Assembly: GCA_002762865.1 (NCBI GenBank)
Contig: PCYE01000021.1
Span: 1-56,201 of the forward strand
DNA: 56,201 nucleotides
Source of the DNA: Candidatus Woesearchaeota archaeon CG10_big_fil_rev_8_21_14_0_10_33_12
Lineage (GTDB): Archaea > Nanobdellota > Nanobdellia > Woesearchaeales > CG1-02-33-12
Direction of reading: 5' to 3'
A program made the position numbers. Positions within the stretch are counted from its first letter, which is position 1. The number at the start of each line of letters is the position of its first letter. Of this stretch, positions 39,001-45,000 are shown piece after piece.

Positions 39001-42000
39001 ACTGTCAAAAAATAGTGAAGCAATTAAAGACAACAATGTAATTAAAAAGACTATCAAAGCAGATTTTTTTAAGTGCGAATAATTTATTTTTCTTTTTTTA
39101 ATTAAAACAAAAAGCCAAACCATTAAAAAAACAAAAAGAAGCTGTTCAAGTATAATCAATCTTCTAACATCAGCCATATGAGATTTCTCTTTTTCATTGA
39201 AATTTACATTTAATTCTGAACTAAAGCCAGTTATGTATCTTGTTACATTTCTGTCAATCTCTAAATGGCTTGGATTGCCTGAATATTTTCTGATAAGCGA
39301 GCTATGAAAAGATGTTGAATAAAGATAATAGTTAAAAGAGCTGAGAATAATTATAAAAGCTATTAATAGTGCAATTAAAAAATCTTTTTTTATTTTTTTA
39401 GATTTAAGCATTAAGCTCATAGCCTCCCAAGGAAACAAGATAAACAGTATTATTCAGATATTTCTGATTTTCAACTATGTGTTTTGGCGGCCACCCCCAT
39501 CTTAATGGTATCCCTATATTTTTCATTAGCTCAGTTACATTAACACCATGCGCTTCTGGTGATGAAATGATTTTTGTTAGGCCATTTTCTTCAATTGCCT
39601 TAGCCTGCTCAGCACGGTGTAATTTCCTTGCTTTAGGCTGCCAGAGCCTTGGATTATACCACTGCCTTGGGTGTTCTGACCATTCAGGATGCTTTAGTCT
39701 CATCCTTTCTGCAAATTTACCAACTGCAAAATCTGTACAAATAACATATACTCCTCTATCAAAATCAAGGACATTATTAATTAAGGGTTGGTTTGGCGGG
39801 CACCCCTCTTTTTTGTTGTAATTTGGACAACCTTTTGAGTGTTTATAGTATTTGAGTTTACAAAGTGTTTGTATCCCTTCCTTATACGGAATTATTTCTG
39901 GTTCTATTCTTTCAATCATCTTAACTGCCCTTATTTTTCATAATCTGCTTTATCAATTTTTGGATAAGTTCCAGGCAGCATAAAAACTTTTTCTGTTTTT
40001 ACTGCAAGGCCTCTCTCACCAAGCATCTCCTCAGAATCCATCTTTGCATTTCCATAGCAGATAAGCTCTCCTTTTAATGTAATTACAGCAATAACATCTT
40101 CATTAGTTATGCCTGAATCAAGCTTTGAGATTCCAGGCACATTAAGATTGGCTCCATGGCACAAGCTGTCAACAGCGCTGTCTAATACATAAATTTTCGG
40201 AAGATGCCTGACAGCATTTTCAATTGGCTGTATGCAATAACGCAGGTATTTTTCATTTCCATTTTCATAATAATAAAAAGCGTCTGTTAAATCCTGTAAA
40301 GTAACTAATGTACTTTCATCAAAAGGTCCTGCTTTTGTCCTTCTTAGCTCAGCCATATGGGCTCCGCAGCCAAGTTTTTTGCCAAGGTCATGTATAAGCT
40401 TTCTTATGTATGTTCCTGCCTCACAGCCAACCTTAAATAAGACATCCTGGCCATCAATCTCAATTACCTCAAAATAGTATATCTGCCTCTCCCTTAACCT
40501 TCTTTTAACAGCGCTTTTTAATGGCGGCATCTGCATTATCTTGCCCACAAATTCATTGCATACCTGATAAATCTCATGCTCTGGAATCTCTTTGTGTATA
40601 TGCATCAGCCCAACATATTCTTTTCCTGCCTTAAGCAGTGTCTGCACTACTCTCGTTGCCCTGCCAGTTGCGATTGGCAAAACACCTGTAACACCTGGAT
40701 CAAGAGTGCCAGAATGNNNNNNNNNNNNNNNNNNNNNNNNNNNNACTTGCTTATATCAAGGATTTTCTGGACATATGCACTAACCTGATGAGATGTAGGT
40801 CCAGAGGGCTTGTCAATGTTGACAACCCCATAGTTTATGAGTTCTTTTACAGGCCTGTTATTAGGATCACAGCCAAATTTAGATGAGCTTACAGATTTCT
40901 TTCTAATTAAAATTTTTCTCTTAATTTTTTCAAAAGGCAGTAAATCTTGTTGCATGCCTAGAAAGAGTTTCTTGTTATTTAATAAGGTTTTGCTTTAATG
41001 AAATTTATCTANNNNNNNNNNNNNNNNNNNNNNNNNNNNNNNNNNNNNNATATTCAATTACCCTGCCAATTACTTCGTATGCTTTGTTTTTGTAATAAAC
41101 AACCTGCCCCATATTATACTTTTTGTCTTTATTCTTAGGAAAAAACATAGCTTCTTCTTTTCTAATAAACTCTACTCTTCCTTCTAAATTCTCTTTTTTA
41201 GGAATATTTTTTTTCATCTAGCTTTTAGTTAGAACTCTTTTTTGATTTGGATTTTTCTTCTTTAACTGCTTTTTTATCTTCTGCTGGTTTCTTTTCTTTA
41301 TTCTTTGTTTCCTTGGATTCTTCTTTTTTTACTGCTTCTTCTTTCTTTTCAGGCTGCTTTTTATCTTGTTTTTTAGGTGTTATTTTCTTTGTTTCTTTTT
41401 TCTTTTCCTTTTTTTCTTCAACAGGCGCCCCAACAAGCTCTGCTTTAACTAAGCCATCATCATATTTCTCAACCTTTACCTTAACCTTATGAGGTGGATT
41501 TTTAATGCCATGTTCCCAAACCTTTAGGTTCAGGTATTTTCCAAGCTTAATATTATCTGATTTCATATGCTTTGCTAAGAATTCTTTTAAGGCTTTGATA
41601 GTTTTTTTTGCCCTCTTGTATTTTGGGGCTTTCTGAAACTCTTTCCTTAGGGGAATTATATATTCTCTTTCCAGTACAACCTTTGATTTTTCCTCTTTCT
41701 TTGCCATTTTTATGCCTTTGTCTTGGTTCTTCTCCAGGATCTCTTTATCTCAGTATGCCTGCCAGGATGGACTCTTCTTCCTTTTCCATAAATCTTCATA
41801 ACTGTCCAGAAAGGAGCCCATCTAGTCTGCTTGTGCAGTCTTGCAAGCCTCAGTTTCCTGCTTAAATGCTTGTATCTTGCCATTTTATTTTCTTATCATT
41901 TTGAATTTGTGTTTTTTTGGCTGTAATCTCATTAAAAGGTTTTTTAGTGCATCATCATCAACTGTTTTTATCTGGCTGGTTTGGATTGCCTGGCTTAGTA

Positions 42001-45000
42001 ATATAAGCAACTGAACAGCCAATTCAGGATGTGCTGTTTTTAGGTTGCCGTATCTTTCCAATGCTTTTTTTGTTAATACCCCTTTAACCAAATTCTCAAG
42101 TTGAGCTATCTGTTGTTGTATCTCTGCTTCTTCTGAATCAAATTGTTGTTGTCCTTGAAGTTCTTCAAGTTTTTTCCTTTTAAGCTCCTCAAGATCAGTC
42201 ATTTTTTTACTAGCTCATCAGCAGTTGATACATCTTCTTTGGATTGTTCTTTTTTAAGCTCTTTCTTAGGCTCATCTTTTTTTTCTTCAACCTTATTCTC
42301 TGCTTTAGCTTCAGCAGGTTTTTCTTCTGCTGGTTTTTTGATTTCTTGTGACTGTTTAATTTTAATATTCTGTTTTTTTAATTCTGGTTTTTTCTCAACC
42401 TTTTCTGGTTGTTTGATTATTTTTTCCTCTTGTTCTTTATCAACTTTCTCTGCTGGTTTATTTTCTTTAACCTCAGCAGGCTTTTTTGGCATTGTTTGTG
42501 GTTTTTTGCCAGAAATCTGTGCAGCAACCTTGTCAAGAATAGATGCTCCTTTTGGGGCAATTATCCTTCCTTTGTGGACTCCTTTTTCTGCTTTTTTTAC
42601 AAGTCCTGCCTCTTCAAGCTGTTGTAATACTGTTCTTATTATCTTTCCAGAGCCACTGTAAAATTTCTCTGGCTTAACCCCTCTGTTTTTTTTGCCGCCA
42701 TATTTTGTTCTTAGCTTTGATACTCCTATTGGCCCAAGTTTATGGGTTGTTCTTAATATAGCAGCAGCTCTTACATACCACCAATCATCTCGTGCTGGAG
42801 CTCTCTCTTTGTGAGCGCCTGTCTTAACAAACTCTGTCCATGCAGGAGGCTTTATAAAGGGTATTTTTTTCAATTCTAAGGCTGTTTTTTCTATTAATTC
42901 GTTCTGAGGAACATTATAAATGTCTTTCATTAAAATCACTCCATTATTCAACCGTTTTATTTAAAAATAATGGCTTAAAAGTTCTTAATTAGCTTTTTAA
43001 ACAAATTAGTTTAAAACAGAACCATTAAACCTATTAAATAAACCTTATTTAATATTGTGCTCTAGAAAACCAGAAAACTAGGATTCTTTAAAAAGCTTGT
43101 GTTTGTTAATTGAATGGAAATAACAAAAGGAGGAGGTAAAGAAATGAAAAACAAAAAGTTTATAAGAAAAGAGTTTATAAAGTAATAAAAAGAGGTTTGT
43201 TATGTTAAAAAAAAGAACCGAGATAAGCACTTTTGAGTTAATGGTGCTGATAGTTGGATGTGCAGCAGTTATTCTTGGATTTAATCTTATTAACAGGGTT
43301 TACATAACAGACTATGCTATGAGCTGGCCAATGGTTATCTCAATATTCACATGGCTCATACTTCTTGTTTTGTTTATTCTTCTAAGCATAAATGTTGATT
43401 CCACCAAGCAAACCCTAAAAGAAATAACAGAAATAAAGGATATCCTCAAGAAACTAACTCAAAAGAAGGAATAAGCTTGAGTAGTTAGATAAATTTAATT
43501 CTTAATATCCTCTAAGTTGATTATTGCCTTATTTATCTTTATAGAATCATCCAATGCTATCCTGGGGCAGGCTGTGTTTACAAAGCATTCAACAAATGGA
43601 AAGTTCTCCAACTGATTAAAATCTATTGTATTGAAAACAAGGAAGTAAAAGTTCTTGTCCCTGAATTTGTTTTTTAGCTCAAAGGCCTTTTTTAGCTGTT
43701 CCTGGCCTGGCTTTGTTGTTACAATAACCCCTATTTCTTTTGAGCTGAGAAATTTAATTAATGCCCCTTTGTTTTTTTTGTTTATTTTTTCAGCTTGTTC
43801 TCTATCTATTTTATTAAATTTGTTAGTTAATGGATTAAATATAAAAACATCTTTTTTTGTTTTTAATGAAATTGCAGTTGGATGAAACAGGCCAGAGCCA
43901 ATGTAAAGAAAGGCATCAACTTTATCATTAACAGATAATGCAGAATTAACATCGCATCCAAGAACCTGGGCTTGATAAGCTGCATGTTTTCCTTTACCAA
44001 AAAATACCTTTTTGCCTTCTTGTTCCAATTGCAATTTAATCTCCTTAACCTGTCCAATGAACTGCACTGTTGTAACTAATCCTATTTTTTCAGGCAGTTT
44101 TAAAACATGTTTTCCAATAAAAACAGCTTTATTGTATCTTGCTTCAACAAACATTAGCTTCATATTTTAAAGAAAAAAGTTTTGTTTTTAAATATTATCC
44201 TATTTTAATATGTCATAAAAGGCATCAAATATTGGCTTGTCTGTTGTTATAATGTGGAAGTCAACTCCAAGCTCATCGCATAGTTTTGCTATCTTTGATA
44301 TATGGCTTTCAAGCCTTTGCTTATAACCAATTCTAAGCCTTGGATTTATATAAGTCCTTAGTATATTCTTTGTTTCAGAGTCCTTAAGCCTGAAATCCCC
44401 GCTAAACAAAAGCTCTCTCTCAACAGGATCCAAAACCTGTATTATCTTCATATCATGTTCCCCGAGCATAAAAAGCCCTCGTTCTATTTCATCAATATTA
44501 AACAAAAAGTCAGATATTATTACAACAAGAGCCCTTGAGCCAATCATCTTCTTGTATTTAATCATGGCATCCTTAAATTTTGAAAAACCAATCAGCTTTA
44601 TATTGTTCAGATGCTCAACCATTTCTGCAAGATGTCCCATGCCTCTTTTTGACTTAAATGTTTCAAGTTCCTCTGAAAAGGTTGAGAACTGGAATTTCTC
44701 ATTTTCCTTCATTGTAAGATAAGCCATTCCAACACCAAGCATAGAAGAATAGTCAAACTTTGTAATACCCTTGCCAAAGTTCATGCTAGCGCTATGGTCA
44801 ACTATTATATGGGTCGTAAGGCTTTTATCTTCCTCATATCTCCTGATGTAAAGGTCGTCTGTCCTTGCAAATATCCTCCAGTCTATTGACCTGAAATCAT
44901 CTCCTGTAGAATAAATCCTGTGGTCTTTTATTGTTATGCCCCGGCCATGTATAACAGAACGCCTTGAGCCAGTATAGCTTGACGTAACTCTTTTCTTTAT

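Follow-up and report, generated by a model that had tools for sequence, protein, structure and literature searches.

Lysine- and glutamate-rich C-terminal tails on ribosomal proteins of a woesearchaeal genome, and DNA blocks common to the tails of unrelated genes

Ten ribosomal proteins of G000, the genome under study (other G numbers denote genomes of relatives), continue past the end of their Pfam domain into a long Lys/Glu-rich C-terminal extension, and within its clade the tails of unrelated genes have blocks of DNA in common. The explanation that we favour, and consider probable, is that these are encoded extensions with a stop codon at the start of the next gene, that they change length in frame and carry common DNA blocks, likely through slippage and ectopic gene conversion, and that their likely role on the surface of the ribosome is that of soluble, non-sticky spacers.

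Tails of G000 and the eL31-eS19 locus

Every one of the ten genes named in the survey's finding proved to be extended. Nine tails measure 66-104 aa and consist of 50-65% K+E with at most one aromatic residue. In the eight whose sequence is variable (eL31, eS19, uL22, uS3, uS5, uL15, eS1 and eS6), the charged fraction is 0.54-0.65, the net charge -2 to +18 and the number of prolines 3-9. Together the tails add approximately 690 residues to each ribosome in a genome of 1 Mb; solved archaeal chains measure 89-95 aa for eL31 and 149-158 aa for eS19. We reproduced the count that 9 of the 12 ORFs with at least 50% K+E in their last 45 residues are ribosomal, the remaining 3 being a DUF1844 protein, ScpB and prefoldin beta. 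However, G000 holds 35 K/E-rich segments in addition to the nine tails, and 34 of these belong to non-ribosomal proteins, so that K/E-rich ends are enriched in ribosomal proteins but are not specific to them, as had been proposed.

The eL31 and eS19 tails lie in the window, i.e., the whole 56,201-nucleotide stretch that was analysed, which contains the following features:

41225..41707, minus strand: eL31 gene, 160 aa (ORF; Pfam PF01198 at residues 12-81, E 1.8e-15)
41228..41428, minus strand: eL31 tail, 67 aa, 61% K+E, net charge +11, 0 aromatic residues
41710..41883, minus strand: eL39 gene, without a tail (ORF; weak PF00832 match, below cut-off)
41885..42202, minus strand: gene for a PF01984 dsDNA-binding protein (ORF and Pfam), with a start codon overlapping the stop of eS19
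42199..42930, minus strand: eS19 gene, 243 aa from ATG (ORF; Pfam PF01090 at residues 4-140, E 3.6e-50)
42202..42513, minus strand: eS19 tail, 104 aa, 50% K+E, 9 prolines
42211..42231, minus strand: VSTADEL, a worn copy of the terminal motif VP[ST]A.EL by motif comparison
42260..42308, minus strand: block that matches the G152 eS6 tail at 46/49 nt
42331..42390, minus strand: 60-nt block found in 5/5 clade eS19 tails, and in uL22 and uL15 of G152 only
42936..42942, minus strand: GGAGTGA, Shine-Dalgarno-like, before the eS19 ATG (sequence reading)

The tails had been described as free of stops, and both frames are indeed open. Moreover, contigs from other runs that span 41100-41575 and 42068-42893 show zero differing letters, demonstrating that the eL31 and eS19 tails are real.

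Distribution and sequence change among relatives

Tails were scored for 25 genes in a panel of 30 genomes, 20 from the order and 10 from other orders. Those of eL31 (30/30), eL32 (29/29) and uS3 (27/30) are near-universal and present in 10/10 genomes outside the order, while those of uS5 (2/29) and uL15 (2/28) are rare. The eL31 tails of the panel measure 57-129 aa; with the core alone as query, 138 of 150 best matches have a tail of at least 35 aa. Within the order, eL31 is extended in 20/20 genomes and eS19 in 10/20, in agreement with the survey's counts in relatives (27/28 and 16/30). Ten tails as an order-wide trait is nevertheless too broad a description, given the figures for uL22 (10/20), eS6 (8/19), uS5 (2/19) and uL15 (2/18) and the presence of the core in other orders. 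A panel genome has 3-9 tails among the 25 genes (order median 5.5; G000, 9): a stable set of eL31, eL32 and uS3 is class-wide and the remainder varies among genomes. Similar tails also occur outside the class, as in an archaeal uS3 of 318 aa among solved structures, with database leads in Nitrososphaerota and Iainarchaeota. In two panels, no tail was found on uL2, uL3, uL5, uL6, uL14, uL18, uL23, uL30, uS8, uS14 or uS19. These 11 tail-free controls and known ribosome structures suggest that the extended termini lie at the surface.

Two of the extensions form a second class, conserved and predicted to be helical. Residues 150-232 of uL11 are 63-100% identical across 120 homologues and are predicted as helices with pLDDT 83-87. 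The eL32 extension has a dN/dS of 0.10 and 1 gap in its alignment; its predicted helix covers residues 112-177 at pLDDT 88-93, dropping to 53-61 past residue 150. Both would dock onto rRNA or a factor. A fold search with uL11 returned no matches beyond L11 chains and middling helical ones; residues 187-231 gave a match to a Pex14 N-terminal-like peptide-binding bundle (Z 5.2-5.5, rmsd 2.3-2.5, 45-50 aligned) that scores under the background for helical bundles. The uL11 extension as a substitute for a lost stalk can be dismissed, since 147/151 genomes have uL10 and 61/61 have P1; for the same reason, the failure to find uL10 and P1 in G000, which is 93.7% complete, probably reflects a gap in the assembly. 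The proposal of disordered tails therefore fits the eight variable proteins, which are fairly predicted from composition to form charged, probably disordered surface arms, but not uL11 and eL32. A ribosome coated in polyampholyte is likewise a fair prediction for those eight, with the provisos that the set varies (3-9), that uL11 and eL32 are predicted helical and that similar tails exist outside the class.

The variable tails change rapidly in length. The tail alignments contain 88 gap openings, versus 0 in those of the cores, and in related populations the eS19 tail (42202..42513) has in-frame variants of -57, -36 and -3 nt. Whatever the tail length, the stop stays pinned at the start of the next gene: uL22 ends at most 25 nt from the start of uS3 in 39/41 loci with a long tail and in 24/29 with a short one, at a median distance of -4. 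At K/E codons, A/G changes are distributed 41:7:70 over positions 1:2:3 compared to about 0.9:0.9:1 in a neutral simulation, with K-to-R and E-to-G changes depleted. The dN/dS of variable tails is 0.22-0.45 and that of uS3 0.13; these values, like the one for eL32, are biased low and non-independent because they come from blocks at least 75% alike in pairs that all share G000. Selection thus preserves the reading frame and a K/E-rich composition, not the sequence as such. K+E content declines with GC content (rho -0.42), so mutation bias contributes; pure mutation bias is rejected, as tails survive at 54-59% GC with 36-53% K+E. A single alpha-helix pattern is also rejected for the variable tails, where opposite charges are enriched at i+2 and not at i+4, eL32 being a weak exception.

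Are the variable tails of any benefit? It is possible, if doubtful, that they are bloat tolerated at exposed termini and kept free of stops only by translational coupling. Their patchy presence (uS5 and uL15 being the extremes), a uL22 overhang that spans 3-158 aa, the pinned stops, the fairly free exchange of K and E and the existence of frameshifted ends (eL31 of G154) would all be accounted for. However, the eL31 tail persists in all panel genomes and most representatives even though an in-frame deletion could excise it and leave coupling intact; this is difficult to reconcile with bloat, as is the burden of the extra residues in so small a genome. Substitution patterns fit both readings: Arg could be purged simply because it is harmful, and translational coupling would by itself suffice to remove stops. 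On the explanation that we favour, the variable tails would act as soluble, non-sticky spacers. Binding of nucleic acid in the manner of histone H1, which would tie ribosomes to DNA or mRNA, is very improbable. The uL22, uL4, eS19 and uL15 tails do lean basic, at +0.13 to +0.20 net charge per residue, but those of eS1, eS6 and uS5 are near neutral in G000 (-2 to +6), panel eS1 is acidic, Arg is purged and Ala is low.

DNA blocks and terminal motifs common to unrelated genes

In the clade of G000, blocks that measure 40-109 nt, lie in frame and are 84-98% identical are common to unrelated and mostly unlinked genes, namely eS19, uL22, uL15, eS6, eS1 and uL10, plus FtsY. The tail genes belong to different Pfam families, i.e., they are not paralogous. 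Among 44 tails of 6 genomes, 30 alignments score at least 30, all in frame, compared to 0.09 for codon shuffles. Sharing was seen in 27 of 857 gene pairs within the clade versus 0 of 15,852 with the tails of distant genomes (Markov null, 0.12 pairs); the six genomes are close kin (core identity 81-88%), so only a few separate events stand behind these 27 pairs. The best pair within G000 itself scores 28 (38/43 nt). Recent sharing is uncommon, occurring in 4/30 panel genomes (null 0.16; absent from 26/30; G150 was excluded because its match consisted of masked bases) and in 3/77 operon loci (null 0; absent from 74/77). On sequence comparison, one block is traceable from eS19 to uL22 and uL15 in a single lineage: the G152 copies of the 60-nt block differ by 3-4 bases from their own eS19 and by 4-10 from others, a proximity that concerns this one block, with a margin over G151 of one base.

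Artefacts of assembly or annotation, for tails or blocks, are scarcely credible. The DNA is A-rich and of low complexity and some copies are near-identical (65/66, 56/56), but most blocks are diverged (80/89, 89/104, 79/89), in frame and found across genomes, and the independent contigs agree. A dispersed mobile repeat is rejected as the source in this clade, since whole-genome hits with E <= 1.5e-8 fall only in ribosomal tails. Known repeats of that sort are the coding palindromic elements, of which RPE of Rickettsia and REP are types; the blocks of this clade and of G071, unlike them, are not dispersed. In G156 and G157, a weakly palindromic element of approximately 35 nt does occur in tails and other genes, much like RPE/REP.

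Ectopic gene conversion, as between tufA and tufB or rRNA operons, leaves tracts, from some tens of bases up to a hundred, in which copies in one genome resemble each other more than orthologues do. Here too, separate loci share tracts beyond chance and one block is nearer its own donor, whereas the genes are unrelated and alike through low-complexity tails alone. The tails of unrelated genes therefore likely exchange DNA blocks by recombination. RadA-type recombination would be the copying route, and a RadA-like ORF was found by motif; slippage and ectopic gene conversion would together remodel the tails in frame. That blocks travel instead via RNA, with abundant transcripts being reverse-transcribed or used in RNA-templated repair, is improbable. 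Donor and recipient genes are expected to be highly expressed, and of the 34 K/E segments that G000 has outside ribosomal proteins, the one in FtsY alone attained a score of 30 against a ribosomal tail; many of the other segments, however, are constrained coiled coils, and RVT_1 was found in 1/5 clade genomes and in none of the incomplete genomes G000, G152, G153 and G154.

Short motifs recur at the ends of tails. Motif A (VP[ST]A.EL) closes uL10, uL22, eS6, eS19 or eL31 in relatives, at 22 distinct sites whose copies differ by synonymous codons between families; it occurs in 6/427 tails against 0.045 expected. Motif B (L..EL.KKGTLR), with six invariant columns, closes uL22 in 3 loci and 16 of 78 distinct uL10 ends, a sample enriched for long frames in which 5 ends carry motif A and 9 the canonical stalk peptide. 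The tails might thus be tethers that present a short conserved helix to a lineage-specific partner, the motif being multiplied by conversion. We consider this unlikely, for motif A is confined to those 6 tails and to 3/150 eL31 representatives, it is worn in the eS19 and eS6 of G000, the uL10 sample is biased, and with P1 matched in 61/61 genomes and canonical at the ends inspected, factor recruitment is not lost. We are more sceptical of a wider version, in which the ribosome surface of Nanoarchaeia would be a modular display: the uL10 end peptide mostly lost, a new helix motif substituted in many lineages, and motif and K/E linkers spread by gene conversion to uL22, eS6, eS19 and eL31, the motif there recruiting a partner specific to the lineage, perhaps the new three-helix domain carried by the adjacent uL11.

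Known systems and significance

Five of the extended proteins, eL31, eL32, eS19, eS1 and eS6, have to our knowledge no bacterial counterpart. C-terminal low-complexity regions on ribosomal proteins have already been published; in the paper texts searched, we found no description of the present tails or of copying between ribosomal tails. The prokaryotic regions surveyed by Ntountoumi et al. (2019; PMC6821194) are mostly C-terminal, A/E/K-rich and judged to lie at the surface, with archaeal S3 among the frequent carriers; they are mainly A/E-rich and sit on S3, S24e, L10 and L12 of cultivated genera. The present tails likewise follow the conserved domain and are biased to A/E/K, but they are K/E-rich, occur throughout the class on eL31, eL32 and uS3 and on as many as six further proteins, and share blocks, whereas the relevant passages of PMC6821194 do not describe exchange between genes. 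In Mycoplasma pneumoniae, 11 ribosomal proteins including S3, S5, L22 and L4 carry solvent-exposed extensions, mostly predicted disordered and some helical, whose disruption affects fitness (Xue et al., bioRxiv 10.1101/2021.12.18.473270). That organism is similar in its reduced genome, its many extended proteins and the S3, S5 and L22 counterparts; it is bacterial, and the passages of that study on the extensions do not describe tail-to-tail copying. The mosquito RpS6 and RpL23a extensions, as cited in PMC11764897, are lysine-rich and of low complexity, with eS6 again a carrier, but are described as histone-H1-like. The present tails, near-balanced K/E polyampholytes, lack the strongly basic, K/A/P-rich character of H1-like extensions.

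The tails open to testing the question of why the proteins most abundant in reduced genomes become longer, and they are a probable case of concerted evolution between unrelated essential genes via low-complexity tails alone. In marker alignments, they should be trimmed. The class-level extensions of uL11 and eL32, together with the replaced uL10 end, are targets for a first DPANN ribosome structure.

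Extended ribosomal proteins at the eS19 and eL31 locus

The source genome (G000; 1.05 Mb, 93.7% complete, with the window as its contig C46) encodes, on the minus strand of the window, two of its ribosomal proteins with K/E-rich C-terminal tails, with two further genes between them:

42199-42930, minus strand: eS19
41885-42202, minus strand: PF01984 gene (dsDNA-binding protein)
41710-41883, minus strand: eL39
41225-41707, minus strand: eL31

Beyond the conserved core, eL31 carries 67 and eS19 104 additional residues; solved archaeal chains have 89-95 and 149-158 aa, respectively. 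The survey's finding of ten such proteins is real and partly misread: eL31 and eS19 are extended at this locus, and the other eight (uL11, uL15, uL22, eL32, eS1, uS3, uS5, and eS6) are borne out by Pfam. An independent ORF scan also reproduced the ribosomal share (9/12) of ORFs with at least 50% K+E over the last 45 residues. Identical pieces of 41100-41575 and 42068-42893 occur among contigs from four other runs, none of them marked as the source run; no one piece covers the entire stretch. The eS19 tail has −57, −36, and −3 nt variants in related populations, every one in frame. At 39931-40955, a gene that we take to be Cbf5/TruB-like appears as two ORFs flanking a masked stretch. The genome also has two eS17-like ORFs, named by eye (L011:404-583 and C45:4939-5133, locus L003).

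Range and classes of the extensions

In an operon set of 80 named loci nearest by uL14, plus G000, overhangs of at least 30 aa are present in uS3 (73/73), eL32 (66/66), uL22 (41/70), uS17 (43/80), uL15 (13/60), uL4 (12/63), and uS5 (11/63), and in none of twelve other genes. Loci of this set labelled Methanosarcinales sit within the Woesearchaeota tree; records titled Methanosarcinales or Aminicenantes (L064, L067, L137, and others) hold Woesearchaeota-type operons, and these titles are likely label or binning errors.

Tails in a 30-genome panel (best eS19 matches among 79 genomes chosen at about one per family; a few lengths include masked bases)
Protein: same order (20 genomes); other orders (10 genomes)
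eL31: 20/20; 10/10
eL32: 19/19; 10/10
uS3: 17/20; 10/10
eS1: 15/20; 0/10
uL22: 10/20; 2/10
eS19: 10/20; 3/10
eS6: 8/19; 2/9
uS5: 2/19; 0/10
uL15: 2/18; 0/10

For uL11, an open frame of at least 212 aa is found in 123/150 among the matches listed, frame lengths being upper bounds. Searching with the eL31 core alone, 138 of the 150 best matches have a tail of at least 35 aa; it is absent in two of five outlying genomes (eL31 of 79 and 94 aa). On these counts, the claim that all ten tails are order-wide does not hold: a core of eL31, uS3, eL32, and uL11 extends across the class, the remainder are patchy, and G000 lies at the high end of the range in its number of tails. Outside the class, there is a solved archaeal uS3 of 318 aa and, as Atlas leads only, a 162-aa eL31 cluster (chiefly Nitrososphaerota) and a 216-aa eS19 cluster (chiefly Iainarchaeota).

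Passages of earlier papers report 117 archaeal ribosomal low-complexity regions, mainly C-terminal and at the surface (PMC6821194), and 11 extended proteins in M. pneumoniae (Xue et al., bioRxiv 10.1101/2021.12.18.473270). Tails of the present kind are not described in passages of PMC11764897 and PMC9932298, nor, by a search for terms, in a 208-genome Nanobdellota preprint (10.64898/2026.05.13.725050), where "tail" and "low-complexity" each occur 0 times.

The tails had also been taken to be uniformly disordered, which is not borne out for two of them. Residues 150-232 of uL11 are conserved, with 378 matches found and an alignment made, and a model places helices at 167-201, 207-216, and 221-227 (pLDDT 83-87), with 231-255 alone unstructured. 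The eL32 extension has a dN/dS of 0.10, one gap, and a conserved end, with a predicted helix at 112-177 for which confidence holds to approximately 145. The other tails are broken by prolines and rich in gaps (88 gap openings versus 0 in the cores), with dN/dS values of 0.13-0.45 that are biased low by the filter used. The extensions fall into two classes, conserved and predicted to be helical in uL11 and eL32 versus variable in the rest.

In a sample of 78 distinct uL10 ends that favours long frames, the canonical form is seen in 9, and 16 terminate in a helix motif whose last residues are KKGTLR or KI. P1 has matches in 61/61 genomes, and the P1 ends examined are canonical. The canonical end peptide is missing from most uL10 (L330:977-2200, L343-L412), which are either cut short near 285 aa or carry a K/E tail with the new helix motif; P1 is normal. 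A further terminal motif, VP[ST]A.EL (22 sites; 6/427 tails versus 0.045 expected), closes the tails of three clade proteins, eS19, eS6, and uL22; other families have it at the end of uL10 or eL31.

DNA blocks common to tails of different genes

A comparison of 44 tails, drawn from G000 and five close relatives, yields 30 cross-gene alignments with a score of at least 30, all in frame; 100 codon shuffles give 0.09. Block identities within the clade include 65/66, 80/89, 89/104, and 79/89 nt; the clade genomes are kin, so that counts are not independent. Sharing gene pairs number 27/857 within the clade, with eS19, uL15, uL22, eS6, and eS1 as partners, versus 0/15,852 when the partner is a real tail from a distant genome (Markov null 0.12). 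The block at 42331-42390 is present in 5/5 eS19 tails and in uL22 and uL15 only of the relative G152, whose copies are closest to its own eS19.

In whole-genome searches, all matches with E <= 1.5e-8 fall in ribosomal tails; weaker ones are in uL10, SSB, FtsY, and unrelated genes. The uL10 of clade member G151 has 94/109 nt in common with uL15 of G154 and 84/89 with FtsY of G153, and the network therefore extends beyond ribosomal genes. G000 has 34 K/E segments in non-ribosomal proteins, of which FtsY alone attains a score of 30. DUF1844 and ScpB (L017:1019-1495, L018:820-1575) have K/E tails of 70-100 aa, which share no block with ribosomal tails.

Four further genomes, all from the 30-genome panel, have blocks in eL32/uS3 (G139, 104/107), eL31/eS19 (G071, 56/56; also in eS6), eL31/eS6 (G038, 36/36), and eS19/uL22 (G060, 45/50). 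Cross-gene blocks occur in 4/30 panel genomes (null 0.16; G150 left out) and 3/77 operon loci, one of the three being a dispersed, weakly palindromic element in G156 (unpublished), an element claim based on G156 and G157. In these two genomes (L185-L196), the approximately 35-nt element lies in the tails of uL22, uS3, uL15, uS5, and eL14; it is also present in genes identified by eye as ligase, FtsY, and FtsZ. A short part of the eL31/eS19 repeat of G071 recurs in the tail of an Rrp4-like protein from that genome (L328:802-1632), and the eL32 and uS5 tails of G013 (L291:12935-13279) each contain one module, presumably helix-hairpin-helix-like, with 30/32 nt in common. Weighing against exchange, the best within-genome pair in G000 scores just 28, and a recent block is absent from most genomes examined. 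Literature searches, which covered articles without their supplements, turned up no account of sequence copied from one ribosomal tail to another.

Selection and growth of the tails

A/G changes at K/E codons are distributed 41:7:70 over positions 1:2:3 (33:5:52 with duplicates removed); when neutral change is simulated and passed through this pipeline, the ratios are approximately 0.9, with lower bounds of approximately 0.6. K<->E swaps are nearly tolerated in the tails, and Arg and Gly are not. That such selection merely avoids harm is conceivable, if improbable.

Irrespective of tail length, the uL22 stop lies at the uS3 start (39/41 long-tailed and 24/29 short-tailed loci) and the uL4 stop at the uL23 start (12/12 and 48/51 loci). 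Since the stop stays fixed at the next gene's start at any length, the tails grow from inside. In the S10 operon of G000, a family-2 glycosyltransferase gene lies between uL22 and uS3 (L001:3880-4692, contig C31); this sequence also follows the uL22 stop in G151, and in G152-G154 uL22 leads directly to uS3.

Open frames, pinned stops, indels, common blocks, and codon-level selection are shown by the data. We propose that exposed termini may tolerate growth, and that purine-rich K/E codon runs could slip, changing tail length, and supply short homology for ectopic conversion; selection would then maintain a soluble, Arg-poor polyampholyte. A reverse transcriptase was detected in 1/5 clade genomes. 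Rather than reflecting mere avoidance of harm, the tails probably serve these ribosomes as a spacer or solubility aid.
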